A DNA stretch of 64,000 bases from an uncultured Clostridium sp. GTDB lineage: Bacteria > Bacillota_I > Bacilli_A > RF39 > UBA660. Shown here one piece after another: positions 37,711 through 58,322 of this stretch. The notes below the pieces were generated by a model. That model was not told the DNA's origin, made no database searches, and saw only the letters and a list, made by a program, of their open reading frames with translations. A program made the position numbers and the translations under genes. The DNA lies in assembly GCA_946414595.1 (NCBI GenBank), contig CAMKPE010000005.1, positions 704 through 64,703 on the forward strand, in the 5' to 3' direction. The stretch's first letter is position 1. The number at the start of each line of letters is the position of its first letter.

Positions 37711-39667
37711 TATATTTCTTGTCTTTCTTCTTTTTCTATCATTATTTAGAATTACTTTTATTAAAACCAAAAGCGATATAAAAGAGTCTAATCAATATAC
37801 ATGTGTTATAACCTCAATAAATGCCTCTAAAATGCTTTTAAATTGTAGTGAATATATTGAATCAAATATTATAGAAAAAGTCGAAATAGGGGATGTATTA
37901 TCGCTTTATGGAGAGTTAGAAGAATATACACCAAATACTAACTTTAATTTGTTTAATTACAGAGCTTATCAAAATATAAGAGGAATATTTTATAAGATAA
38001 ATATAAAAGAATATAAATTAATAAATAAAAGTAATAATATTGTTTTAAATATTAAGAAATTTATAAAGAATAGAATATCAAATCTTAAAAGTAGAGATTA
38101 TTTAGAATCATTTATTCTAGGAGATAAGTCATATATATCAAAAGATATTAAAAATACTTATACTTATCTAGGTATAATACATATCTTTTCTATATCAGGA
38201 ATGCACATATCTATTCTTGTAGAATTAATAAATAAAATTAATAAAAAAAATAATATAAGAAAAAGTATATGTACATATTTATTACTATTCTTATATTATT
38301 TATTAATTGAAAGCATATCATTATTAAGAACAATTGTATTTATTATCGTTAAAGATATAAATAAATATTTTAATTTGAATATATCAAAGTATCGAATAAT
38401 ATCTATATCTATTTTATTAATACTTATATTAAGACCATATACTATATATGAGATAGGATTTTATTATTCATCGATAATAAGTATAGGAATATATTTAAGT
38501 ACCAAAAGATTAAACAAGATAAATAATAAAGTATTAAAAACAATATACATATCATTTATTGCATTCCTTCTATCTCTTCCATTAAACATATATTCTTATT
38601 ATGAAATAAATCTCTTAGCAGTCTTATATAACATTATTCTAGTTCCTATAATTTCTTTATTAATATTTCCTTTATCATTAATAACTTTTATCTTTCCTAT
38701 ATTTGATGATATCTTATTATTTTTATTAAATTTATTTAATAATATTGCAGATATCTTTTCAATGATAGACACAAGTATTATATTGAAAAAACCAAGCATA
38801 CTTATAATAATTATTTACTACATAATCATCATAATTGTATTAACAAAACCAAAAACATTTTATTTATTAATAATTACTTTATTAATACACAAAAATATTA
38901 ATTATATTATCCCAAGTACATATGTAATATTTTTAGATGTAGGACAGGGGGATTCTATCTTAATACATGATAGAGACTATAATATATTAATAGATACTGG
39001 AGGAAAAGTTAATAGTGAATATGAAATAACAAGTAATATTACAACAAAAGTATTAAAGTCATTTGGAATTGAAAAGTTAGATTATCTAATCCTAACTCAT
39101 GGAGACTACGATCATATGGGAGAAGCAGTTAATCTAGTTAATGAATATAAAGTAGATAAAGTAATACTTAACTGCGGAGAATTAAATGAATTAGAAGAAG
39201 AATTAATTAAAACACTTAATGAAAAGCAAATAACTTATTACTCGTGTATTAAAGAACTTAAAATAAATAATAATTTATTACACTTTTTAAATACAAGAGA
39301 ATACGATAATGAAAATGATAATAGCAGTGTTATCTATACAAATCTTTATGGAGTTAAATTGTTGTTTATGGCAGATGCAGAAAAAGAAAAGGAATTAGAT
39401 ATAATAGAAAAATACAACATAAATGATGTAGATATTTTAAAAGTAGGACATCATGGGTCTAAAACAAGTAGTAACAAAGAGTTTATAGATGAAATAAAAC
39501 CAAAGTATTCAATTATAAGTGTAGGAAAGAATAATAGATATGGACATCCAAATAAAGAAGTACTAGATAACTTGAAAGAATCAATAATATATAGAACAGA
39601 TCAAGATGGAAGTATTATGCTTAATATAAAAAATAACAAGTTAATTATTGATGTATGTTATAATTGA
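37679..39667 (+). CDS. comEC: DNA internalization competence protein ComEC/Rec2
   Basis: Polytopic competence domain (GIIHIFSISGMHISIL) plus a C-terminal metallo-beta-lactamase domain (FLDVGQGDSILI, LTHGDYDHMG, VGHHGS, NRYGHP). The exact start is uncertain. Confidence 0.85.
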   Translation: MRKLKILLNSNIFLVFLLFLSLFRITFIKTKSDIKESNQYTCVITSINASKMLLNCSEYIESNIIEKVEIGDVLSLYGELEEYTPNTNFNLFNYRAYQNIRGIFYKINIKEYKLINKSNNIVLNIKKFIKNRISNLKSRDYLESFILGDKSYISKDIKNTYTYLGIIHIFSISGMHISILVELINKINKKNNIRKSICTYLLLFLYYLLIESISLLRTIVFIIVKDINKYFNLNISKYRIISISILLILILRPYTIYEIGFYYSSIISIGIYLSTKRLNKINNKVLKTIYISFIAFLLSLPLNIYSYYEINLLAVLYNIILVPIISLLIFPLSLITFIFPIFDDILLFLLNLFNNIADIFSMIDTSIILKKPSILIIIIYYIIIIIVLTKPKTFYLLIITLLIHKNINYIIPSTYVIFLDVGQGDSILIHDRDYNILIDTGGKVNSEYEITSNITTKVLKSFGIEKLDYLILTHGDYDHMGEAVNLVNEYKVDKVILNCGELNELEEELIKTLNEKQITYYSCIKELKINNNLLHFLNTREYDNENDNSSVIYTNLYGVKLLFMADAEKEKELDIIEKYNINDVDILKVGHHGSKTSSNKEFIDEIKPKYSIISVGKNNRYGHPNKEVLDNLKESIIYRTDQDGSIMLNIKNNKLIIDVCYN

Positions 39668-42003: not shown

Positions 42004-42079
42004 TGGTGTCCCCGGTAGGACTCGAACCCACATCTATCCCTTAGGAGGGGATTGCTCTATCCTGCTGAGCTACGAGAAC
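42004..42079 (-). tRNA. tRNA-Arg (anticodon CCU), CCA encoded
   Basis: The minus-strand sequence GTTCTCGTAGCTCAGCAGGATAGAGCAATCCCCTCCTAAGGGATAGATGTGGGTTCGAGTCCTACCGGGGACACCA folds as a cloverleaf. The acceptor stem is GTTCTCG/CGGGGAC, the anticodon stem ATCCC/GGGAT with loop CT-CCT-AA, and the T loop TTCGAGT. Confidence 0.9.
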
Positions 42080-43391: not shown

Positions 43392-44357
43392 ATGAAAAAG
43401 AAAAATAGAAAATTATTAACTTTTTTATTTGTTGCCTTATTTTTATTAGGTTCTTTTTTTGTTGATAGAAGTATCTTCTTATCTTTAAAAGATACTTTAG
43501 TTAAACAAGGAGAAAAAGTATTAAAAAAGATAGATAAGGAATTAAATAAAGATAAAAAGAAGATAGAAAAAGTAAGCAATATTGAAATTAAAAATGGTTT
43601 AATGGTCTTTTTTATAGATGTTGGTCAAGCAGATGCCATATTAATTAAGTCACAAGATGAATACATGATAATTGATGCTGGTAATAATGCTGATGGTAAA
43701 AAGCTAGTTGAGTTCTATCAATCTTTAGGGATAAAAGAATTTAAATATGTTATTGGAACACATGCCCATGAAGATCATATAGGTGGAATGGACAATATAA
43801 TTAGAAACTTTAAAGTAAAGAATTTCTATATGCCAGATGAAACGACAACCACAACGACATTCTTATCGATACTTTATGAACTAGAAAAGAAAAATATTAA
43901 GTTCCAAACTCCAAAAGAAGGAACTAAATTGAAACTAGGAGATGCCAATGTAGATATATTATACGTTGGAGAAAGTAAAGAAGATTTAAATGATACTTCA
44001 ATAATAGTTAAAGTAACATATAAGAATACATCATTCTTGTTTACTGGAGATGCTACTCAAAATGAAGAAAGATTAATACTTGATAAAGACTTAAAAAGTA
44101 CAGTATTAAAGGTAGCCCATCATGGTTCTAGTTTTAGTACAAGTGCCAGCTTTTTAGCAAAAGTAAAGCCAGAATATGCAGTTATTTCTGTTGGAGCAAA
44201 TAACGATTATAGTCATCCACATGATGTTATCTTAAACAAATTAAAAAAGATTAATGCCAAAATATATAGAACAGATAAACTTGGCACAATCATCGCTTAT
44301 TCAAATGGAAAAGAAGTAACGTTTAAAAATATAAAAACGGATACTAATGGAGAGTAA
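43392..44357 (+). CDS. Secreted/anchored MBL-fold hydrolase (ComEC C-terminal-domain-like)
   Basis: Signal-anchor sequence, FFIDVGQADAILI, GTHAHEDHIGG, VAHHGS and NDYSHPH. Confidence 0.8.
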   Translation: MKKKNRKLLTFLFVALFLLGSFFVDRSIFLSLKDTLVKQGEKVLKKIDKELNKDKKKIEKVSNIEIKNGLMVFFIDVGQADAILIKSQDEYMIIDAGNNADGKKLVEFYQSLGIKEFKYVIGTHAHEDHIGGMDNIIRNFKVKNFYMPDETTTTTTFLSILYELEKKNIKFQTPKEGTKLKLGDANVDILYVGESKEDLNDTSIIVKVTYKNTSFLFTGDATQNEERLILDKDLKSTVLKVAHHGSSFSTSASFLAKVKPEYAVISVGANNDYSHPHDVILNKLKKINAKIYRTDKLGTIIAYSNGKEVTFKNIKTDTNGE

Positions 44358-44620: not shown

Positions 44621-46936
44621 ATGAAAAGACTTGATCCAAAAGCAGAATATGGATTATCAAGTGAAGAAGTAGAAGAACGTTTACGAGAAGGACTTAACTA
44701 TACCGATGTATCCGTTCCTACAAAAACAATTAAAAGAATTGTTAGCGATAACTTCTTTACTTTGTTTAACTTCTTAAACTTTGGTATAGCAGCAGCCATC
44801 TTTATGGTTGGAGCATATGAAAATATGCTTTTTATAGGTACTGTAATATTCAATATCATAATCAGTACAGTACAAGAAATAAGAGCTAAGAAAATAGTAG
44901 ATAAATTATCTTTAATTAGCCAATCCAAAGTAGTAGTTGTTCGAAATGGTAAATTAAAAGAAATAAATAGAGAAGAAATGGTTCTTGATGATATCGTCGA
45001 ATTAAGTGTAGGAATGCAAGTCGTTGCAGATTCAATAGTGCAAACAGGAACATGCTTAGTTAATGAATCATTTATCACTGGTGAACAAACACCTATAGAG
45101 AAAAAAGAAGGAGACATGGTCTTGTCTGGAAGCTTTATAACTGGTGGTAAAGTAAGAGCTAAAGTAGAGCACGTTAAAGATGATAACTATACATCAATAA
45201 TCAGTAAAGATGCTAAGTACGTTAAGAAATTAAATTCAGTATTAATGAACTCTTTGAATAAGATTATTAAATATATCTCATTTACAATAGTTCCAGTTGG
45301 GATAATGTTATTTATTAACCAATACTACATTGCTGGAAATGGTTATAGTGAAGCAGTTTTATATACTACTGCTGCCTTAATAGGAATGATACCTGATGGA
45401 TTAATTCTATTAACAAGTACAGTTTTAGCAGTATCAATTATTAGACTTAGTGAGTATAAAGTATTGGTACAAGAATTATATTGTATAGAAACTCTTGCAA
45501 GAGTAGATGTATTATGTCTTGATAAGACAGGTACTATTACTGAAGGAGTTATGGAAGTAGTTGACTTCATACCAAATATCAAATACTCACAAGAAGAAGC
45601 TGAACGTATTCTTGATGGATTATGCCATACACTTGAAGACGTATCACCAACAATGAATGCTGTAAGAAATAGATTTGAAACAAAGAAAGGTAAAGCACTT
45701 GATTGTATCAAGATAGATCCTTTCTCATCAGATAAAAAATATTCTAAGGTATACTTAGAAGGAATTAATTATTATTTAGGAGCTCCTGAATTTATCATTA
45801 AAGATAGTGATTATAGTAATTATTCTAAAGATTATAGAACACTTCTTTTAGCAGGAGAAAAAGATGATAAGAAATTCCCAATTGCACTTATTCTTATCCA
45901 AGATAAGATAAGAAAAGAAGCTAAAGAAACACTTGAATACTTTAAACAACAAGGTGTAGAAATTAAGATTATTTCTGGAGATAATCCAATTACTATTTCT
46001 CAAATTGCCAAAAGAGTAGGAATAGAAGATTATGATAAATATGTTGATTTAAGTACTATTAAAACTAAGAAAGAATTAAAAGAAGCATATTTAAATAACA
46101 CTATCTTTGGAAGAGTTAAACCAGATCAAAAGAAAGAATTAATATTATTAATTAAGAGTCTTGGTCATACAGTTGCTATGACAGGAGATGGAGTTAATGA
46201 TGTTCTAGCATTAAAAGAAGCAGATTGTTCTATTGCTATGGCAAGTGGAAGTGATGCAGCAAGAAATGTAAGCCAATTAGTGCTTATGGAATCAAACTTC
46301 GATGCAATGCCTAAGGTAGTTGAAGAAGGAAGAAGATGTATCAATAACATTGGAAGAAGTGCATCACTATTCTTAACAAAGACAATATACACAGTATTAC
46401 TTGTATTAATGACTTTGTTTACTGCCTTCCATTATCCATACTTACCAATACACTTAAGTTTAATGAACTTAATTACAATAGGAGCACCTTCATTAATTCT
46501 TGCACTTGAACCAAATAAAGAAAGAGTTAAAGGTAACTTCCTAGTTAAGATAATTGCTAATGCAGCACCAGCAGCATTAACAGTATTCTCAACATTATTT
46601 ATATTCTTATTTATAACAAGAAACTCATCATTAACAACAACAGAAAGTTCAACTGTATGTGTTATCATGACAACAATTATTATGCTTATTTATCAATACA
46701 AATTATGTAAGCCATTTAACTTAATAAGAAGATTATTAATGATTACGATGGTTACTATATTCTCAGTAGAATTATTATTCTTTAGAGATTTCTTCTCACT
46801 TGCTGATCTTGATTCAGGAATGTTTATTTTAATAGGATTGTTAATTCTATTAGCAGTAGTATTATGGAAGCTATATAATAAGTTGTTCTATTATTTACAA
46901 CATAGTAACAAGAGATTCAAAAAAATGATGCAATAA
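44621..46936 (+). CDS. Cation-translocating P-type ATPase (HAD-IC)
   Basis: CLDKTGTITEG phosphorylation site, the TGE-type actuator (ITGEQ) and MTGDGVNDVLALKEAD. About ten TM segments. Confidence 0.9.
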   Translation: MKRLDPKAEYGLSSEEVEERLREGLNYTDVSVPTKTIKRIVSDNFFTLFNFLNFGIAAAIFMVGAYENMLFIGTVIFNIIISTVQEIRAKKIVDKLSLISQSKVVVVRNGKLKEINREEMVLDDIVELSVGMQVVADSIVQTGTCLVNESFITGEQTPIEKKEGDMVLSGSFITGGKVRAKVEHVKDDNYTSIISKDAKYVKKLNSVLMNSLNKIIKYISFTIVPVGIMLFINQYYIAGNGYSEAVLYTTAALIGMIPDGLILLTSTVLAVSIIRLSEYKVLVQELYCIETLARVDVLCLDKTGTITEGVMEVVDFIPNIKYSQEEAERILDGLCHTLEDVSPTMNAVRNRFETKKGKALDCIKIDPFSSDKKYSKVYLEGINYYLGAPEFIIKDSDYSNYSKDYRTLLLAGEKDDKKFPIALILIQDKIRKEAKETLEYFKQQGVEIKIISGDNPITISQIAKRVGIEDYDKYVDLSTIKTKKELKEAYLNNTIFGRVKPDQKKELILLIKSLGHTVAMTGDGVNDVLALKEADCSIAMASGSDAARNVSQLVLMESNFDAMPKVVEEGRRCINNIGRSASLFLTKTIYTVLLVLMTLFTAFHYPYLPIHLSLMNLITIGAPSLILALEPNKERVKGNFLVKIIANAAPAALTVFSTLFIFLFITRNSSLTTTESSTVCVIMTTIIMLIYQYKLCKPFNLIRRLLMITMVTIFSVELLFFRDFFSLADLDSGMFILIGLLILLAVVLWKLYNKLFYYLQHSNKRFKKMMQ

Positions 46937-46964
46937 AAAACTATAGTATAAAACTATAGTTTTT
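46937..46964. terminator. Bidirectional terminator
   Basis: 11-bp stem aaaactatagt/actatagtttt between convergent genes. Confidence 0.8.
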
Positions 46965-49026
46965 ATTTTTTTTCTAGTCTTTGTCCTGGAGTACCAAATA
47001 CTTCAGAAATGATCTTTAATCTACTATCATCTAAAACACTACCATAAATCATAGCATTAAATATTTTCTGTTCTCTAGATAATTCATCACATTCACTATT
47101 ATTTTGTAATATAGCAAAGTTTCTTAATACTTTTTGTTTAGATATTATAATTCCATTTATGTTGTATTCTAGATCACTAATAGAGTACTTTTCTAATTCT
47201 TCAATAATAAATGATTCTTTTGGTATTCCTTTGCTTTCAGCAATTGCTTTATAGCAACTATCATCCATAAATCTATAAACAGCATTAGGAACATATCCAT
47301 CTATATCTTCATCACTAATAATATTCTTACCAACTCTAAAAGCTTGATCAGTTATCTTTGGTGATAGTTTATTATCAATTACTAAAGGAAGACCAAGTTC
47401 TCTACATAATTCCATACGTTTTAAATATGTATAAGATTCTTGCCCAATATATTTAGGATTATTTCTAATAAACTTAGAAAGACCTAATTCAATAAATCTA
47501 TCTATTATTTCAACAAGATTTGTATTTTCAAAAAATTCATAATTATTAGAAGTTGAATATCTAAGACTATAAGTATTGATTAATCTTAATACATTTTCAA
47601 GTTGTTCTCTATCTTGTAAAAGAGTAGCACTATTTCTTGATTTAGATATTGCAAAAGCATCTATCTTGTTATCTCTTAATAAATTAACGTTATTAACGAT
47701 TCTATCGAATGCAGCTTCTTTTATAGTTGTTTCTTGCATTATTTCTTCATTAATATCTTTTACAAATATTTCTGGATTTCTTTTAACAAATTCTTGACTA
47801 ATTACACTACTTGTAATCATTTTATTTACTGTTGATACTATTGCAGGTGTAGATAAAAGTAAAATATCACAAATAGGGTAGGAATCATTATAAATCTTAA
47901 TTCCTGACTCAGTTAATAATGTCATTATCTTTTCTATGTTTTCAATGTTACCATATCTAGTTAATTTAGATAGGTTTTCCATTAAATATTCATGAGTACA
48001 ACAACTCTTCTTAAATATTTTTTCTAATCTAGTCATTGTTTCTTCTTCTTTTAATCTATTAATTGTTTCATTATGGAATTGTAAGTTATGTTTTAATACA
48101 GTTCTTAATACTAAATATTTAATTCTTTCATCAGTAATACTATCTAAAGTACCTTTTGATAGATCTATTGGTCTATTTAAATTGAAAGATTTAATTATAT
48201 TGATAACTTTATCTCTTTTTCTTATGATTGAATTATTTTCTTTTTCTCTTAATCTAGGTAAGTTTTTAATTTCTGTTGCACGCTCTCTTATTGAATCTAA
48301 ACAGTCTAGTGCTTTTGTAACTCTTAATGTAATATCATAGTTTATTTCTTTTTCTCTTATTTCATCTTGTGCAATTTGCATGTAACGTGTTTGAACTATT
48401 GCGCGATAACCAGCGTTAGAAGCTAATGTAAAATTACTTATATCTTTTCCATTATCTGCTACAAAATCTTTTGCTTGCGCTGTAAATTTTAAACCATTAA
48501 CTGCTCCAGCTACTACTAAAGCATTAATTAATGGGACACCAAAATCTTCAATTAATCTAAAATACATAATCCTAGATTTATCTGTTGGGCACATAGTTCT
48601 AATTATTTTTTGAGCTTTCTCAGCAAGATCTAATAAACCTGCTTCTTTAAGCTTTAATGCGTCTTCATCGAATTCTAAATGTTCATATGGAAGAAATACA
48701 AATTCTTCTAATAAACCTTTGTCATTAAATTCTTTTACATAGTCATTAAAAATGAAACAGTAATCATAATCAGGTATTTTCTCTACATTTAATAAACTAA
48801 CTTTATCTCTTATTTCTTTATAAGTAAGTTCTGACTCACTTCCACAAAGAATTGCTATTACTAAATCTTTAACATTTATTTTTAATATAGAATCTTTTCC
48901 ATTTATATCCATTGTTTTACATATACTTTCAAGAAACTCTAATTCTTCTTTTTCATCTTCTGATAGTTCAGTACTTTTAAGTCTTTCTTTATAATAATTA
49001 TTTATATAATGTATCAATCTATCCAT
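46963..49026 (-). CDS. Hypothetical 687-aa soluble, predominantly helical protein
   Basis: Long ORF with an 8-nt overlap with the upstream 329-aa gene. No recognisable motif, TM helix or signal peptide. Confidence 0.55.
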   Translation of the reverse strand: MDRLIHYINNYYKERLKSTELSEDEKEELEFLESICKTMDINGKDSILKINVKDLVIAILCGSESELTYKEIRDKVSLLNVEKIPDYDYCFIFNDYVKEFNDKGLLEEFVFLPYEHLEFDEDALKLKEAGLLDLAEKAQKIIRTMCPTDKSRIMYFRLIEDFGVPLINALVVAGAVNGLKFTAQAKDFVADNGKDISNFTLASNAGYRAIVQTRYMQIAQDEIREKEINYDITLRVTKALDCLDSIRERATEIKNLPRLREKENNSIIRKRDKVINIIKSFNLNRPIDLSKGTLDSITDERIKYLVLRTVLKHNLQFHNETINRLKEEETMTRLEKIFKKSCCTHEYLMENLSKLTRYGNIENIEKIMTLLTESGIKIYNDSYPICDILLLSTPAIVSTVNKMITSSVISQEFVKRNPEIFVKDINEEIMQETTIKEAAFDRIVNNVNLLRDNKIDAFAISKSRNSATLLQDREQLENVLRLINTYSLRYSTSNNYEFFENTNLVEIIDRFIELGLSKFIRNNPKYIGQESYTYLKRMELCRELGLPLVIDNKLSPKITDQAFRVGKNIISDEDIDGYVPNAVYRFMDDSCYKAIAESKGIPKESFIIEELEKYSISDLEYNINGIIISKQKVLRNFAILQNNSECDELSREQKIFNAMIYGSVLDDSRLKIISEVFGTPGQRLEKK

Positions 49027-50008
49027 TTAAATCATCTCTTTTTCTTTCTTTTTTCTTACCAGTTAAAGTGAGTTTAATTCTTCTTAGGATTTCTTGATGC
49101 TCTTCTATGAAACTATCATTTGATAAAGCTTCTTTTAACATTTCTCTTTGCAATCTAAATTCTTTAGCTCTTGCTTCTAGCATTTCACGATAAGGTGCTG
49201 TATTTTGGAATCTTTTAACAAGTATTCCAAGTATAACAATTACATCATTATCAAGTCTTGTAAAGATTATTCTTGAGTCTCTTCTTCTTATTGCAGATAT
49301 TCCTTTTAATGGATTATAGTTATAGAATCTTTTTTCTCTTGTCATTTTATTCTTTTCTATATCTTCAATAATAGGTATCATATCTTCTTCATCGTTAATC
49401 TCATCTATATCTGAATCAACATAAAGTGATCCATTAGATTTTCTTAAGAATATAATTTTATTTTTATGTTCATCAAAAGTTTCTTCTATAGTTTCTTCTT
49501 GAAGATTATATGCTTTAATTATTTCAATTAATCTTCTATTATTATTAATTAAATCAATTAAATATTCTTCATCTTCTTCATTCATCATTTCATGAGCAAT
49601 TTGTATTTCACGTAATAAATATAAAAGAATAGATGAGATAATTGTGTCATAGTTAGTATCATAACTTGATGGAAGAAGTTCAGTTAAGAAGTCTTCATCA
49701 TCACAATCTTTTAAAGATAAAACGTATGGAAGCACATCAGTTAAGTTTGATTTAACTGTTGGTTTAACTTCAACGCTTTCTTCTTCCACATTATTTTTCT
49801 TTTGAACTTTTTCTTTTCTTCTTGTATGTTCAAATGACTTTTTATGCTCACTATCAACACTTAGGTTATGTTTTAAAACATCTATTAAGATTTTATTTAT
49901 ATCTTCAGAAGAAGTCTCTTCTTCACGCAAAAAAGTAACTAAACTTCTAATGTCAGTTACATAACCATATTCACCCGTAAATTTCTTAATTATTTCATTA
50001 GTTGTCAT
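49019..50008 (-). CDS. 329-aa protein with a RelE/HigB (Gp49-like) toxin-fold C-terminal domain
   Basis: The C-terminal KIIFLRKSNG...YNPLKGISAIRRRDSRIIFTRLDNDVIVILGILVKRFQNTAPYREMLEARAKEF matches the pattern of RelE/ParE/HigB toxins (L.G....R.R.g.yRiiy...d...vvil.i..K..q.tP..ei..A). AAGGGG SD. Confidence 0.55.
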   Translation of the reverse strand: MTTNEIIKKFTGEYGYVTDIRSLVTFLREEETSSEDINKILIDVLKHNLSVDSEHKKSFEHTRRKEKVQKKNNVEEESVEVKPTVKSNLTDVLPYVLSLKDCDDEDFLTELLPSSYDTNYDTIISSILLYLLREIQIAHEMMNEEDEEYLIDLINNNRRLIEIIKAYNLQEETIEETFDEHKNKIIFLRKSNGSLYVDSDIDEINDEEDMIPIIEDIEKNKMTREKRFYNYNPLKGISAIRRRDSRIIFTRLDNDVIVILGILVKRFQNTAPYREMLEARAKEFRLQREMLKEALSNDSFIEEHQEILRRIKLTLTGKKKERKRDDLNG

Positions 50009-50038
50009 ATAGCTAAAACCCCTTTAAAATCACGGCAT

Positions 50039-50067
50039 ATTATATCATATTATCTTTTCTTTGTCAA
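50039..50067 (-). promoter_or_regulatory. Consensus sigma-A promoter for the 329/687-aa operon
   Basis: The minus strand reads TTGACA (plus 50062-50067)-17 nt-TATAAT (plus 50039-50044). Confidence 0.65.
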
Positions 50068-50089
50068 TTTATGATTAATATGTTATAAT
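50061..50089 (+). promoter_or_regulatory. Sigma-A promoter for pssA-psd
   Basis: TTGTCA(50061-50066)-17 nt-TATAAT(50084-50089) with a TG extension at 50081-50082. Confidence 0.6.
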
Positions 50090-53008: not shown

Positions 53009-53830
53009 ATGGTGTGTTATAAAGATGAAATAGAATCTTTTAAATGGCAAGTAGAAGCAGATAAAGAAATCTTTATGCCAAGAAAAGAAGATGAATTTGC
53101 TATTTGTAGACAATTAATAAGAATGAGTTTTAATAAAATTGAACACTTGAATGTTGACCATAGAAACTTTAAAAAATTGTTTCTAAGATCTATTGACCCT
53201 CTAGGAGCAAAAACAAAAGATTATTATGTAGAAGCTACAAGCAAGATAGGACTTGAAAGAACTTCAAAAATAAGAAATGGTGACTCTATAATAGTAGGTA
53301 ATTCTAAAGATCAAACAGCATACATAACAAATAGAAAAACAAGAGAAGATGATTTCTTTGCGTTCTCACATGAAATGGGCCATTATAAAGTAATAGTAGA
53401 TTCAAGTCATGGTGATTATTTTGAATATGGTGAAGTATTGCCAATATTCTTTGAGTATCTAGCATGTAAGACAATAGATGAAAAGAATGCTTTTGAAATG
53501 TTTTTAAGAAATAGATTACAAGCAGTTAAAGGTGATGCCCAAGATTACTTCAAATTAAGAAGTGACTTAAGAGGTAATAAATCAGCAAAAGATGAATACA
53601 CAAGATTAGAAATAAAACATAGAATGCGTTACTTTATTTCAGTTGATTATGTATTACAACTAATCGAAAGATTCAAAAAGGATAGAAGTGAAGTAAGTAG
53701 AGCAATAGATGAATATCTAATAGATCATAATACATTTAAAAATCTAGAATCAAGATTAGATATTGATACAACAGGATGTAAAACTCTTCTTAGAAGAGCA
53801 AACTATTATGTAAGGGGTCCAAAATTATGA
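53009..53830 (+). CDS. HExxH zincin-like protein, array member A1 (273 aa)
   Basis: FSHEMGHY (HEMGH = nt 53369-53383), with the conserved Glu of EVLPIFFEY 17 residues after the second His. Shares the C-terminal LDIDTTGCKTLLRR box with all array members. Confidence 0.6.
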   Translation: MVCYKDEIESFKWQVEADKEIFMPRKEDEFAICRQLIRMSFNKIEHLNVDHRNFKKLFLRSIDPLGAKTKDYYVEATSKIGLERTSKIRNGDSIIVGNSKDQTAYITNRKTREDDFFAFSHEMGHYKVIVDSSHGDYFEYGEVLPIFFEYLACKTIDEKNAFEMFLRNRLQAVKGDAQDYFKLRSDLRGNKSAKDEYTRLEIKHRMRYFISVDYVLQLIERFKKDRSEVSRAIDEYLIDHNTFKNLESRLDIDTTGCKTLLRRANYYVRGPKL

Positions 53831-54648
53831 GTGAAGAATTAGATTACCAAGAAAGACTTTTTATGTTTAATTCTCAAATTGCATATGCAAATAAAACTTT
53901 TTGTGAAGATACAACTGACTATGAAGAAGTATGTGAAGCACTAGCAAATACAGAAAAAAAACAAATAGAAAGTAAAAGTGCAAGTATCAGAAAAGTTAAA
54001 AATGTTTTTTTAAGATCAATAGAAAACTTAGGTGAAGATACTATTTCTTTCTATAAAGGTGAGTTACCTAACGTAAGAATTAAAAAGAAAAAATATTTTC
54101 CAGGGCGAGTAGAGATCTCAAATGGTTCTGCAGGAATATTTGATCTTAATGGAAAGTATATATTATTCACTCATAAAAAGGATCATAACGAACAAGATAT
54201 TGCCGCAATTTATCACGAATTTGGACATATACCAGTAATAAGAGATGGTGCACACGGAGATTATTATGAATTTGATGAAGTGCTTCCAATATATTTTGAG
54301 TATATAGCATACAAGAATCTTCATCCTGAAAATCCAATGGAATTGTTTTTACAAGATAGAATAAATATTTCTATAGATCAAGCAAGATTACTTTTAAGAT
54401 ATGCAAAAGATTATTACTGCAGTGATAGCGATAAATCAAGATTCATTAGTTGTCAAATGAGAAGTAGCTTTAAATACATTAAATCTTTTGAATATGCTCT
54501 ACAATTAATTGAAAGAGAACATGAAGATAAGTTAATGACTAATTATGCTATCGATAAAGTTTTAAATGGTGAAAGTACATTTAAAGATTTAGAAGGTCTA
54601 TTGGATATAGATACACATGGATGTAAGAAAATTTTACAAAGATTATAA
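53827..54648 (+). CDS. HExxH zincin-like protein, array member A2 (273 aa)
   Basis: IYHEFGHI...DEVLPIYFEY...LDIDTHGCKKILQRL. ATGA overlap with A1. Confidence 0.6.
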   Translation: MSEELDYQERLFMFNSQIAYANKTFCEDTTDYEEVCEALANTEKKQIESKSASIRKVKNVFLRSIENLGEDTISFYKGELPNVRIKKKKYFPGRVEISNGSAGIFDLNGKYILFTHKKDHNEQDIAAIYHEFGHIPVIRDGAHGDYYEFDEVLPIYFEYIAYKNLHPENPMELFLQDRINISIDQARLLLRYAKDYYCSDSDKSRFISCQMRSSFKYIKSFEYALQLIEREHEDKLMTNYAIDKVLNGESTFKDLEGLLDIDTHGCKKILQRL

Positions 54649-54672
54649 AAACTCACAAATAGTGAGTTTTTT
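54647..54672 (+). terminator. Rho-independent terminator inside the paralogue array
   Basis: aaaactcac/gtgagtttt stem followed by a T-run. Confidence 0.85.
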
Positions 54673-54674
54673 CA

Positions 54675-54703
54675 TTGATTTATAAGGATAAAATCATTAT
54701 AAT
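54675..54703 (+). promoter_or_regulatory. Sigma-A promoter of the second (four-gene) part of the array
   Basis: TTGATT(54675-54680)-17 nt-TATAAT(54698-54703). Confidence 0.55.
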
Positions 54704-54732
54704 AGATAACTAATAAAGTTTGAGGGGATACT

Positions 54733-55608
54733 ATGGGGAATATTTTCGGTGATGAAAGAATTGATTATGAACTAGCAATACTAAAATATCGTGAAGATAT
54801 GGAATCTCTTGGTATGAGATATAAGTATTCTTATGATTCAGAAATGCTTCAATCAATTAATTTATTAGCAAGAAAACTAGTCAAACTTAAAAGAAAAGCT
54901 AATGAAAACGCACAAGGTATAGTTGACGAGGACATGATTAAGTTTTTCTTTATTGAATCCCTAAGAGTTTTAGAAAATAAAGGAATAATAGATTATTACA
55001 AAAGTATACTTAAAAGAACTGAAATAAGAAGAGATTCATCACTAGACTTTAACGATGGAAGAATAGTTAATTATGAAGATCTAGATGGTTTAACTTATTT
55101 TGATGTTAAATTACCAACAGGCAAGTTAACTCTTGAAGATGAATTTATATTTTCACATGAAATGGGACATGTTCCAGAAATAGATGTTCCAAGAAAAACT
55201 TTTTTAGAATATCAAGAAGTTTTACCTATACTTATGGAATACTTATTGTTTTTAAAAAGATATGGAAAGACTTTTGCTAAAGAATGTTTTATAGAAGAAA
55301 GAATTCCTATGGATGTAGAACATTCTGAAGAGATTAAAAGATTTCATAAAGCATGCGATAAAAATTCTAAAATACAACAGTTGTATGCTAAATTAAGACT
55401 TGCTGATTCATTTAAATATCTTGAATCAACTGAGTTTGTACTGCAACTCATCGATATATTTGAAAAAGATAAAACTAAAGTATCAAAAGAAATAGAAAAA
55501 GTAATCGAAGGTAAATCAATGATTGATGTTGCAAAAGATCTGTCTATTGATACTGCTGGTTGCAAGAGATTACTTAAAGAATATCAAAGCTACAGAAAGA
55601 GGGATTAA
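54733..55608 (+). CDS. HExxH zincin-like protein, array member A3 (291 aa)
   Basis: FSHEMGHV...QEVLPILMEY...LSIDTAGCKRLLKEY. GAGGGG SD. Confidence 0.6.
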   Translation: MGNIFGDERIDYELAILKYREDMESLGMRYKYSYDSEMLQSINLLARKLVKLKRKANENAQGIVDEDMIKFFFIESLRVLENKGIIDYYKSILKRTEIRRDSSLDFNDGRIVNYEDLDGLTYFDVKLPTGKLTLEDEFIFSHEMGHVPEIDVPRKTFLEYQEVLPILMEYLLFLKRYGKTFAKECFIEERIPMDVEHSEEIKRFHKACDKNSKIQQLYAKLRLADSFKYLESTEFVLQLIDIFEKDKTKVSKEIEKVIEGKSMIDVAKDLSIDTAGCKRLLKEYQSYRKRD

Positions 55609-55609
55609 G

Positions 55610-56389
55610 ATGGGAAGAATTATGGGAAGAAGTATGGAAACATACGATTTATCAAAAGAATTTATGAATGCAAAATTTCCAAAATATAAAAAAAATAAAA
55701 GAGTAATAACTCTCGAAGAATTAGAGAAGTGCCCTGACGCGATTAAATCTTATTTACCAGAAAGTGCAATTGAATTTATAAAAACTCATCAAATAAATAT
55801 TGTAAGGAACTTTTTTGTTCCAGGAATAATAACAATCTTTCCTGATAATATTAGAACACAAGAACCTTTTATGATTGTTCATAATAAAACTTATGAAGAA
55901 CATAAAAGAGATTTAATTTATTTTATTGGTGGACTTTTAAATAGATTAGAGGATGATCATATGGACTTGAATGCTTTAAATATCCCATGTCAGTTTGCCT
56001 CTGTCTTACCAATTCTTTTTGATTCTATATATATGAAAGAAACGGGAAGAATGGATGAAGCAAGTCTAAAATTTTTGCACGAATTAAGAGGCAATGCTAG
56101 AAGATATATAAGAACGTATGAAAAATATAATAGAAACCCTGATAACGAAGATATGAGACAATTTATTATAAATACATTAATATTCTTAATACCATTCTCA
56201 TCAATGGATGCCTCACTTCAAATAATGGAAAAATACGGTGAAGATAAAGAAGGAATGAAGAAGTTAATAGATGAATTCATAGTAAACGAAAATGGAAATC
56301 AAAGAGAACAAATCCTTCTTGATAGAGGAATAGAAACAACTGGTTTCAAATCATTAAGAAAAGAAATAGAAAGGAATAAAGTAAGATGA
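55610..56389 (+). CDS. Array member B1 (259 aa): same family, HExxH lost
   Basis: ATG 55610 lies 1 nt after the A3 stop and gives the MGRIMGRS N-terminus, which is homologous to B2 and B3. The HExxH position reads YFIGGLLNRL. It retains SVLPILFDS, SSMDASLQIM and GIETTGFKSLRKEI. Confidence 0.55.
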   Translation: MGRIMGRSMETYDLSKEFMNAKFPKYKKNKRVITLEELEKCPDAIKSYLPESAIEFIKTHQINIVRNFFVPGIITIFPDNIRTQEPFMIVHNKTYEEHKRDLIYFIGGLLNRLEDDHMDLNALNIPCQFASVLPILFDSIYMKETGRMDEASLKFLHELRGNARRYIRTYEKYNRNPDNEDMRQFIINTLIFLIPFSSMDASLQIMEKYGEDKEGMKKLIDEFIVNENGNQREQILLDRGIETTGFKSLRKEIERNKVR

Positions 56390-57228
56390 GTAGATTATTA
56401 GCAAAAAGTATAGATGTTTATAAAGCATGTAATGAAATAAATGCAATTAATATACCTAGACATAAACAAAATAGAACAAAGATAAAATGGGAAGATATTG
56501 AAACAGGAGTATATTTCATCGAATGTTATTTAAGTAAAGAAGCAGTTGATTTATTAACAAGTCATAAAATAGAAATACTAAAAGATCCTTTCTCAATGCA
56601 CGCAAGAAGTTCAGAAGTTCTAGATGATGAAACAACTAAAGTAAGTTTCCCATCATACTTTAGTGCTAAAGAAGAATATAAAAGAGATTTTGTATTCCTT
56701 TTAGGAACAATATTAAGTCTTCATAATCTTGATAAAGATAAAGGAGAATTTTCATACGAAATAACTGATGAATATAGAGAAGTCCTTCCTTTATTACTTG
56801 AATATTTATATATGAAAGATTCTTGTCAAGAAGATGCTTTTGCACTTAAAAGAATTGAAGAGTTAAAGACTAGAACAAAAGATTATACTAAAAAAGCTGA
56901 TAAATATAAAGCACAAATTGAAGAGTGCGAAAACATAGTAAAAAATCCATTCTTAACTGCAGGTATATTTGAAGAAACACTTGATTATAAACAAAAATGT
57001 ATTGATGGATTAAAAGACTTAACACATCAAACAATTATTCCTATGTCATCAATGGATGCAACATTACAGTTAATTGATAAGAATTTATCAGTAGATGAAC
57101 TATGTAGAGTAATAGCAAAACTATTTAGAAATGAATATCAAGATAGATCAAGAATAATGGAACAATATGGAGTAGAATCTAACGGATATAAAAGATTAAT
57201 AAAAGAATACGAGCAACACAAGAGGTAA
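56386..57228 (+). CDS. Array member B2 (280 aa): HExxH lost
   Basis: MSRLLAKS N-terminus. FLLGTILSLH replaces HExxH. It retains EVLPLLLEY, SSMDATLQLI and GVESNGYKRLIKEY. ATGA overlap. Confidence 0.55.
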   Translation: MSRLLAKSIDVYKACNEINAINIPRHKQNRTKIKWEDIETGVYFIECYLSKEAVDLLTSHKIEILKDPFSMHARSSEVLDDETTKVSFPSYFSAKEEYKRDFVFLLGTILSLHNLDKDKGEFSYEITDEYREVLPLLLEYLYMKDSCQEDAFALKRIEELKTRTKDYTKKADKYKAQIEECENIVKNPFLTAGIFEETLDYKQKCIDGLKDLTHQTIIPMSSMDATLQLIDKNLSVDELCRVIAKLFRNEYQDRSRIMEQYGVESNGYKRLIKEYEQHKR

Positions 57229-57230
57229 TT

Positions 57231-58076
57231 ATGAGTAGAATATTAGGGAGAAGTTATGATGTATATCTAGCATCCAAAGAATTGAAAGATGCACATATAA
57301 GAAAATACAAAGACGATCACACTAAAACATCTTGGAAAAGTATTGATGAATCTCCAGAGAAATATCAAATGTATTTACCAGATAGTGCAATAGAATATCT
57401 TACAGATAAAAAAATAAAAATATGTAAGGATCCATTCTTGTTATATACAGAAATGCAAATACCATGTAATGAGGAAGAAGATAGATACATTAAATTCCCA
57501 TCAATGATTCCAATTGAAAAATTCAAAACAGAACTTGCATACTTTATAGGAATGCTTCTTGCTGATTATCATGTAGATAATGAAGAAACATTATATTCAT
57601 TTCCAAAAGAATATAGTGATTTACTTCCATTATTAATCGTATATCTTAGATTAAAAGTTGATGGAAAAGAAGAAGAATTTAGAAAGAAGTATTTATCAAT
57701 ACTTAGTAACTATGTAGGAACATATATAACAGATTATGAAGCTTATAAAGATTTTGAAGATTTTTATGGAAGTGCAATAATATCAGAAATGACTAGAGAA
57801 CAATATGATAAACTGGTTGAACTAAGTAAAGAAAACGAAGAGAAAATGACAAGTGCAGTTGGAGAAACAATAATACAGTTATCTGCAATGGATGGAGCAC
57901 TTCAAATAATTGATAGATGTAAAAGTGAAGAAGATTTTAAAAATGTAATAGAAGCCTTATTCTTAAATAAAGATGGAGATAGATCTAGTTTACTAAGAGA
58001 ACAGGGTATAGAAAGTTATGGTTATAAAAGATTAAGAAAAGAAATTGAAGCAATAAAAAACAATTGCAAAAAATAA
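57231..58076 (+). CDS. Array member B3 (281 aa): HExxH lost
   Basis: MSRILGRS N-terminus. YFIGMLLADY replaces HExxH. It retains DLLPLLIVY, SAMDGALQII and GIESYGYKRLRKEI. Confidence 0.55.
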   Translation: MSRILGRSYDVYLASKELKDAHIRKYKDDHTKTSWKSIDESPEKYQMYLPDSAIEYLTDKKIKICKDPFLLYTEMQIPCNEEEDRYIKFPSMIPIEKFKTELAYFIGMLLADYHVDNEETLYSFPKEYSDLLPLLIVYLRLKVDGKEEEFRKKYLSILSNYVGTYITDYEAYKDFEDFYGSAIISEMTREQYDKLVELSKENEEKMTSAVGETIIQLSAMDGALQIIDRCKSEEDFKNVIEALFLNKDGDRSSLLREQGIESYGYKRLRKEIEAIKNNCKK

Positions 58077-58099: not shown

Positions 58100-58322
58100 G
58101 AATATTTGATTGCGATAATTAGGAAGTAGTAGTAAAAGTACTATCTAATAGAGAGCTAGTGTTAGGTGGAAGACTAGTAAGAAAAGTATTTATGAATTCG
58201 TCCTATAGGCATTTATTAATAATAAACGGCTGCACCGTTATAGCAATGAGAGTATTTAAAAATACTAAATTAAGGTGGTACCACGAGTAAAATCGTCCTT
58301 AGGTGCTGCCTTTTTTATTTGT
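58100..58322 (+). promoter_or_regulatory. T-box riboswitch leader, Phe (UUC) specifier, upstream of pheST
   Basis: Stem-I elements (AGAGAG at ~58151, GGTGGAAG). GAA-UUC-G in the specifier position (UUC = 58197-58199). The T-box sequence AAATTAAGGTGGTACCACGAG lies at 58267-58287. The terminator 3' arm CGTCCTTAGGTGCTGCC plus T6 lies at 58293-58316. TATAAT at 58087-58092. Confidence 0.85.

Follow-up and report, generated by a model that had tools for sequence, protein, structure and literature searches.

A pair of overlapping genes on the reverse strand of an uncultured rumen bacterium's contig encodes a multidomain protein of 329 residues (protein 1), whose C-terminal half is supported by structural modelling as having the RelE/HigB (Gp49-type) fold, and an all-helical partner of 687 residues (protein 2) from a sizeable unannotated family; the two occur together in every genomic context compared. 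The DNA that was analysed, here called the window, is a stretch of 64,000 nucleotides (nt) from an uncultured Clostridium sp. (GTDB lineage Bacteria; Bacillota_I; Bacilli_A; RF39; UBA660), taken from assembly GCA_946414595.1, contig CAMKPE010000005.1, positions 704 to 64,703 of the forward strand. RelE/HigB toxins are usually small and mobile, and are paired with small helix-turn-helix (HTH) antitoxins. We give about an even chance to the reading that the present pair is an atypical module of higBA type, fixed in the chromosome, whose large partner neutralises or gates a ribonuclease (RNase). The fold, the conserved residues, the obligate pairing, the fast evolution under purifying selection and the vertical inheritance in the lineage are the demonstrated properties of the pair, and they are set out below.

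The two open reading frames (ORFs) and their parts are the following:

49019-50008, reverse strand: gene 1, ORF of 329 residues, multidomain, with the HigB/Gp49-like domain inside
49493-50008, reverse strand: gene 1 residues 1-172, helical N-terminus (1-60), linker (61-92) and acidic helical domain (93-172)
49202-49462, reverse strand: gene 1 residues 183-269, predicted RelE/HigB (Gp49-type) fold with putative active site K226, R241, R246, L263 and K265
49022-49201, reverse strand: gene 1 residues 270-329, two long basic C-terminal helices, isoelectric point (pI) 9.5
46963-49026, reverse strand: gene 2, ORF of 687 residues, all-helical partner, translationally coupled to gene 1
48472-49026, reverse strand: gene 2 residues 1-185, acidic helical N-terminal domain and more variable part, predicted local distance difference test (pLDDT) score about 88, pI 4.7
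46966-47529, reverse strand: gene 2 residues 500-687, most conserved region (135 diverse members)

Gene 2 starts before gene 1 ends, the two overlapping by 8 nt (ATGGATAG), as read straight from the sequence. An earlier note on this DNA, made from the letters alone, had described two ORFs of 329 and 687 residues with such an overlap, and had quoted the C-terminal sequence of the shorter product; the coordinates and the overlap agree with its description, and the quoted residues are present in the ORF.

Fold and putative active site of protein 1

An AlphaFold2 model of protein 1, built on an alignment of 28 homologue clusters, has a mean pLDDT of 80.8, with values of about 77-92 across residues 181-270. 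The modelled secondary structure runs from a strand (184-187) through two helices (196-202 and 210-218) to four further strands (225-227, 237-242, 245-253 and 256-264) and then a long helix. This predicted order, beta1-alpha1-alpha2-beta2-beta3-beta4-beta5, is that of the RelE-type fold, which is made up of a short N-terminal strand, a pair of helices and an antiparallel sheet of four strands. When the model was compared with the PDB by Foldseek, the top nine matches were all HigB, RelE or HigB2 toxins. The first of these is Streptococcus pneumoniae HigB (6af4, also 6af3), with E 2.5e-3, probability 1.00 and a template modelling (TM) score of 0.63 on the target; further matches include Mycobacterium tuberculosis RelE1 and Vibrio cholerae HigB2 (probability 0.63-0.99 for these). 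ParE2 (7r5a) appears at rank 22, with 33 columns aligned and E 1.7, which does not place the model close to ParE. No match to the model was found in a viral structure library.

Sequence comparisons point to the same family. A profile of the domain, made from 15 diverse relatives and searched against 177,635 PDB sequences, again has S. pneumoniae HigB as its best match (6af3, E 0.11). Gp49 (PF05973) is the sole Pfam family that recurs among protein 1 relatives (2 of 18, E 0.026; 2 of 16, E 2.8e-4), while protein 1 itself has no Pfam match at E <=1, PF05973 included, and is thus not recognised by a family profile. In hhalign comparisons with a verified V. cholerae HigB2 sequence and an unverified Escherichia coli RelE sequence, the expected strands are aligned, but only with P 0.017-0.087; the S-R-I-I-Y/F strand and the basic residue closing the last strand match HigB2 and RelE. 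A chance resemblance is unlikely because these sequence tests, although none is significant alone, agree with the fold search. The RelE/HigB fold that the earlier note had placed at the C-terminal half of the 329-residue protein is therefore borne out by the nine leading Foldseek matches, with marginal sequence matches concurring. The PF05973-type profile search that it had proposed as a check left the window protein below threshold and gave the marginal Gp49 matches in relatives.

The residues expected at the active site are largely kept. In S. pneumoniae HigB, R68, R73, F90 and K92 were found by mutagenesis to matter for RNase activity and toxicity (PMC7984235). An offset of 20 in the PDB chain reproduces five published residues (E66, R68, R73, F90 and K92), and the HigB numbering is secure because this one offset fits all five identities. 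The correspondence of residues was obtained from a hidden Markov model (HMM) alignment to S. pneumoniae HigB and from the family alignment, including relatives 22-27% identical to the window protein:

HigB R68: R241 in the window protein; R or K in every relative
HigB R73: R246 in the window protein; invariant
HigB F90: L263 in the window protein; F in one close relative and all seven distant ones, whereas the window's subgroup has L, V or M
HigB K92: K265 in the window protein; invariant

Three of the four mutationally tested residues (R68, R73 and K92) thus have identical counterparts, the fourth position being changed from F to L, and K226 is a third invariant basic residue of the toxin-like domain. 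Judged by these residues, the domain seems fit for catalysis, although the window protein has an aliphatic residue where HigB has an aromatic one.

The homologues of protein 1 found by a word-indexed search form 28 clusters (326-344 residues, 37-95% identical), and come from metagenome-assembled 'Bacilli bacterium' genomes of rumen, gut and rabbit origin. The helical residues 1-60 of protein 1 are shorter or missing in distant relatives, whereas the C-terminal helices are kept in all relatives, including a short form of 232 residues. The linker (61-92) is disordered and basic, with a pI of 9.3; acidic stretches lie in the helical region 93-182 (pI about 4.05) and in alpha1-alpha2 of the toxin-like domain. 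The very acidic linker of the earlier description is therefore not found as such, although acidity is indeed present in the N-terminal extension, in residues 93-182, as well as in the helices of the domain. The acidic helical domain holds the conserved motif Y95..C-D-x-D-F-x-T-E-x-L-P113..Y-D-x-N119. No fusion to an HTH, PIN-like or transmembrane domain was found in protein 1.

The partner family, obligate pairing and inheritance

The family of protein 2 was collected by searching 1.84 billion representatives exhaustively with an HMM, and is counted here in clusters at 50% identity. It comprises at least 315 clusters at E <=1e-3, and 156 at E <=1e-10; among the best 150 of the 315, nearly all are full-length, with 560-707 residues. 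A word-indexed search found only 6 clusters, a gross under-count beside the HMM search. None of the ten clusters that were looked up carries a name, and no family recurs when 68 protein 2 relatives are compared with Pfam, NCBIfam, PADLOC and PHROGs. The description of the 687-residue protein as an orphan is thus right insofar as it is unmatched in curated libraries, but it does not hold for the HMM search, which places the protein in a large family.

Conservation is highest toward the C-terminus. Across 135 aligned members, N446, Y486, D509, E513, G515, R537, Y621, S629 and R635 are near-invariant, and the C-terminal motifs are D-x-F-I-E-L-G and Y-x-I-x-G-I-x-I-S-x-x-K-V-L-R-N. When the PDB was searched with profiles of the full-length family and of its conserved C-terminal third, only helical or low-complexity noise came back (SlmA, E 0.047). 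No search gave an ATPase or nuclease identity, a transmembrane segment is not evident, and a domain common to proteins 1 and 2 was looked for and not found. The AlphaFold2 model of protein 2, built on 6 sequences, has a pLDDT of 63.9 and is confident for residues 1-185 and 240-325 only; Foldseek found nothing for this model (best E 0.96). Of the structure predictions suggested earlier for both proteins, that of protein 1 is therefore RelE-type, while that of protein 2 is confident in its N-terminal part. Repeats of mTERF type at residues 330-560, a likeness seen by eye, were considered and are not claimed, as hhalign gave weak self-repeats (P 2e-4 and 7e-4) and there was no mTERF match among the Pfam matches listed or in the PDB searches.

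The two proteins are encoded together wherever the pair was compared. The seven independent contexts are the following:

Context 1: the window's own lineage
Context 2: addB-addA-LMWPc on one side and rplU-prp-rpmA-obg on the other
Context 3: UvrD-like helicase gene and uvrC
Context 4: DAO-Rieske gene and GyrB-type subunit gene
Context 5: DUF8173 gene and cardiolipin synthase gene
Context 6: DinG-like helicase gene, then two tandem pairs
Context 7: AbiEii-DUF4932 and NUDIX genes

In all seven, a gene of 232-348 residues lies directly 5' of the protein 2 homologue. The product of this upstream gene is a protein 1 homologue by hhalign in the 3 contexts so compared (probability 99.4%, 99.6% and 95.6%), and in the other 4 it aligns with protein 1 and shares the invariant residues. 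Gene order is the same in all related loci, with overlap or near-abutment of the genes, as in a toxin-first bicistron. One contig carries two copies of the pair in tandem (L022 1302-7013), with products of 330 and 622 residues followed by products of 321 and 639 residues. The copies are only 37% and 25.5% identical, which points to an old duplication after which each cognate pair was retained. The short form (L019 4847-7656) consists of the HigB-like domain and the C-terminal helices, lacks the N-terminal regions and has a partner of 704 residues; its contig also carries AbiEii and DUF4932 genes. As side observations, the tandem pairs lie directly 3' of an ORF with a DinG/Rad3-type helicase C-terminus, judged by eye, and in 4 of the 7 contexts (L015, L017, L020 and L022) a DNA repair or topology gene directly adjoins the pair, a pattern that was noticed post hoc and may be due to chance.

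Within the window's lineage, the RRF, hydrolase, psd and pssA genes and the divergent pair keep one order in every contig that is long enough. At the far flank, a DUF3006 gene and a metallo-beta-lactamase gene are present wherever the contig reaches; neither was detected in the rabbit-gut genome L009. Two deep branches (L004 10886-11545; L018 9025-9684) have a gene of 219 residues, without a Pfam match, in place of the P-type ATPase gene, while the pair and its other neighbours are unmoved. The pair's location differs in six other lineages, with one tandem duplication. Contigs from four bovine gut metagenomes span the pair contiguously at a depth equal to that of the flanks, and a search of metagenome contigs at the locus for presence/absence polymorphism gave spurious 21-nt low-complexity joints only, with no clean deletion form. 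In the window's lineage, this looks like vertical inheritance and not like a patchy mobile module.

Both genes evolve faster than their surroundings. The nearest species-level relative shares 66% identity in protein 1 and 52% in protein 2, compared with 88-98% for the neighbours (pssA, psd, hydrolase, frr and ATPase). Against a 95%-identical strain, the ratio of nonsynonymous to synonymous substitution rates (dN/dS) is 0.33 for gene 1 and 0.31 for gene 2; it is <=0.09 for the ATPase, pssA, hydrolase and metallo-beta-lactamase genes, and 0.39 for psd on few changes. Therefore, purifying selection acts on both genes, but in a relaxed or diversifying form when compared with core genes. The G+C content is 28% for the window and 23-29% for all pair loci compared. 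GC skew is inverted over the pair because the pair is on the strand opposite to its neighbours.

The signals for expression of the pair, and the divergent promoter beside them, are the following:

50039-50067, reverse strand: sigma-A-type promoter of the pair, TTGACA, 17-nt spacer, extended TG and TATAAT, 12 of 12 consensus matches
50019-50025, reverse strand: Shine-Dalgarno sequence AAAGGGG, 10 nt 5' of the gene 1 ATG, core (A, GGG) invariant in orthologous loci
46932-46967: A/U-rich hairpin with T-runs on either side, common to the convergent ATPase gene and gene 2
50061-50089, forward strand: pssA promoter TTGTCA-17-TATAAT, divergent, overlapping the pair's promoter (shared stretch 50039-50089)

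The perfect promoter reported in the earlier note is confirmed, and has the extended TG in addition; in an alignment of 7 orthologous loci, the -35 hexamer, the extended TG and 4 of the 6 positions of the -10 element (TANAAT) are invariant. The overlap of the divergent promoters of the pair and pssA suggests possible interference or co-regulation. The hairpin at 46932-46967 has a folding free energy (dG) of -11.2 kcal/mol (z -3.9), and 0 of 200 shuffled sequences were equally good. It is probably the bidirectional terminator that had been proposed there: the stable stem and the T-runs on both sides agree with this, but a terminator scan did not call it, since its G+C criterion was not satisfied. 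The flanking genes are a P-type ATPase gene and pssA, as had been stated; orthologues of both carry the expected Pfam domains (E1-E2_ATPase and CDP-OH_P_transf, respectively).

Interpretation of the pair and comparison with known systems

An origin from a toxin-antitoxin (TA) module is the best reading because the toxin-like gene comes first, translation is coupled and the RNase-type residues are intact. It is also favoured because cognate pairing is obligate, paralogous duplication has occurred and evolution is rapid, and because the pair in the wider family moves, was tandem-duplicated once and lies near AbiEii once. In such a module, the domain at residues 183-269 of gene 1 would, by analogy, be a ribosome-dependent mRNA endonuclease, with the acidic helical domain on one side of it and the basic helical tail on the other. 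Gene 2 would be translated by coupling, from the strong constitutive promoter of gene 1. Protein 2 would most probably bind and control protein 1, either as a giant antitoxin or as a stimulus-triggered sensor that releases the RNase, and candidate inhibitory surfaces for the basic face of the sheet are the acidic N-terminal domain of protein 2 and, within protein 1, residues 93-172. That protein 1 cleaves RNA and is toxic, that protein 2 neutralises it and that a trigger sets it free are the elements that we infer. Present-day selfish or defence behaviour is unproven because there is no defence-model match and no link to mobile elements. The earlier proposal of an atypical TA-derived or defence-type module is thus retained for the TA-derived origin, while no defence model and no phage or plasmid relatives were found for its second part.

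Several observations weigh against a higBA-like module. No HTH or known antitoxin domain was detected in protein 2 by Pfam, NCBIfam or PDB profile searches, its model is poor past residue 325, and an operator-like palindrome is not evident in the promoter alignment (by-eye inspection only). For both window proteins, no curated profile (Pfam, NCBIfam, PADLOC, PHROGs) matches at E <0.01 and none reaches threshold, and the sequence evidence for HigB membership of protein 1, taken alone, is marginal. The mutation F90A weakens HigB (PMC7984235), while the window protein has L263 at this position. Strict synteny of the pair holds in the window's lineage until the identity of protein 1 has fallen to 36-37%, and the depth of that synteny corresponds to 72-75% identity of frr and 57% of pssA. 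A defence-island look is seen in only 1 of the 7 contexts (near AbiEii), and no relatives were found by pattern scans of IMG/VR or by tblastn in INPHARED phages and PLSDB plasmids. Such a conserved position, and the absence from phages and plasmids, are unusual for a selfish TA or defence module. The clade-wide conservation that the earlier note had set against patchiness is therefore found in part, as strict synteny in the window's lineage, but position varies in the wider family.

The same synteny beside pssA-psd-frr across deep divergence would favour a domesticated RelE-fold factor, in which the pair forms a core complex (e.g., a ribosome- or RNA-associated regulator or a quality-control nuclease) with protein 2 as scaffold or adaptor. 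We consider this rather unlikely, even though it also has on its side a consensus promoter invariant throughout the lineage, metagenome depth equal to the flanks with no clean deletion form, the housekeeping genes of other contexts (rplU-rpmA-obg, uvrC, gyrB-like, cls) and the failure to find the pair in the phage, plasmid and viral collections searched. The pair evolves far faster than its housekeeping neighbours, its location varies between lineages, with one tandem duplication and a short form near AbiEii, and the toxin's catalytic-type residues are kept; we also know of no housekeeping RelE-fold protein, which counts against domestication. A DNA-directed function, that is, ParE-like action on gyrase or topoisomerase, or work with DNA repair helicases instead of mRNA cleavage, is improbable. 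ParE has the same fold, and 4 of the 7 contexts adjoin addB-addA, a UvrD-like helicase gene with uvrC, a GyrB/ParE-type subunit gene or, by eye, a DinG-like helicase C-terminus; however, structure and sequence matches favour HigB/RelE over ParE2, the conserved basic residues fit the HigB RNase site, and the neighbour pattern was drawn post hoc from 7 contexts, with no DNA gene in the window's own.

We give similarly little weight to strict anti-phage abortive infection, in which protein 2 would sense a phage component and free the RNase of protein 1. HigB/Gp49-type toxins do serve in toxin-antitoxin-chaperone (TAC) abortive-infection defence (PMC11980606), and the rapid evolution of both proteins, the paralogous tandem pairs and the one context beside AbiEii would be in keeping with such a role. 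Yet the remaining 6 of the 7 contexts lie outside defence islands, the locus has long been stable in the window's lineage, and in PADLOC-DB 2.0 the window proteins have no match below E 0.07, nor does any family recur among the 68 protein 2 relatives. It is very improbable that the RelE/HigB likeness arose by chance in a protein of A+T-rich, low-complexity make-up. Although the window protein has no match at E <=1 in Pfam, NCBIfam, PADLOC or PHROGs, and hhalign against single RelE and HigB2 sequences gave only the P values reported above, the fold search, the PDB profile search and Pfam on relatives are three independent lines leading to one family, the same columns are invariant in relatives 22-27% identical to the window protein, and the order of secondary structure is as in HigB.

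Tentatively, and well short of an even chance, the pair may be an undescribed two-protein system that is widespread among uncultured low-G+C gut and rumen Bacillota, in which a competent HigB-type RNase was captured for a core task and the giant partner, of new fold, holds an enzymatic or nucleic-acid-binding polar site; D509, E513, R537, Y621, S629 and R635 could be the polar residues of that site. If this were true, the pair would be a domesticated RelE-fold regulator, or a new TA class whose antitoxin resembles an enzyme or a sensor. Should the RNase prove active, the pair would offer a tractable case of a toxin module becoming fixed and controlled by a large partner, and a sizeable family of unannotated proteins would gain its first link to a function. 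Should the RNase prove non-toxic, it would be a rare instance of RelE-fold domestication.

A precedent for a fixed TA pair is mazEF (ndoAI-ndoA) upstream of the sigB operon in Bacillales, a type II pair that is held at one position and inherited vertically across the order; but its toxin has a MazF/CcdB-like fold, and both of its proteins are small and canonical. The closest known system is S. pneumoniae HigBA (PDB 6AF3/6AF4), whose toxin is both the best structural and the best PDB profile match of protein 1. In the aligned strands, HigB reads E-L-R-x-x-R-D-R-I-L-F ... F-M-K-R-T-Q-K-T-P, and the window protein A-I-R-R-R-D-S-R-I-I-F ... L-V-K-R-F-Q-N-T-A-P. In both systems a helix follows beta5 and the toxin gene is first in the operon. 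However, S. pneumoniae HigB is a single domain of about 120 residues, whereas protein 1 has about 180 extra residues at the N-terminus and about 60 at the C-terminus; the window protein has L in place of F90 of HigB; and none of the curated profiles reaches threshold here. HigA is a small HTH protein, in contrast to a partner of 687 residues (560-707 in the family) without a detectable HTH. The earlier remark that both partners are several-fold oversized for canonical higBA, with no small HTH protein, is in line with these sizes and with the profile searches. V. cholerae HigB2/HigA2 and M. tuberculosis RelE1 have their fold in common with protein 1 but differ in size and partner, and the pairwise profile scores against HigB2 and RelE are not significant alone.

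Multidomain toxins of the BECR fold (gp49-HTH fusions, PtuZ of ptuXYZ, and ToxM) were described by Gerdes in 2025 (PMC11980606), and likewise carry a RelE/HigB-type domain within a larger protein, with non-canonical operon partners. Unlike these, protein 1 has no fused HTH, PIN-like or transmembrane domain, and no search points to an ATPase or a nuclease in its partner. Multidomain families without an identifiable antitoxin were set aside in that survey (PMC11980606), and the present family fits this description. In summary of what is new, the superfamily of the catalytic domain is known, while neither the architecture nor the partner family nor the conserved pairing is described in Pfam, NCBIfam, PADLOC, PHROGs or PMC11980606.

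Other features of the window

Further features were recorded elsewhere in the window:

38924-39619 and 43392-44357: paralogous metallo-beta-lactamase-fold (ComEC-like) coding regions, 32.5% identical, with a DUF3006 gene after the second
42007-42079, reverse strand: tRNA gene
53009-58076, forward strand: six tandem ORFs of 273-291 residues, 3' of frr
58106-58303, forward strand: T-box leader, 112.5 bits, 5' of an ORF starting at 58275

At least the first three of the six tandem ORFs are paralogous (31-33% identity), and none of the six has a significant Pfam match. They hold their position in related genomes, at 44-45% identity compared with 88-98% for their neighbours, and their dN/dS is about 0.2.

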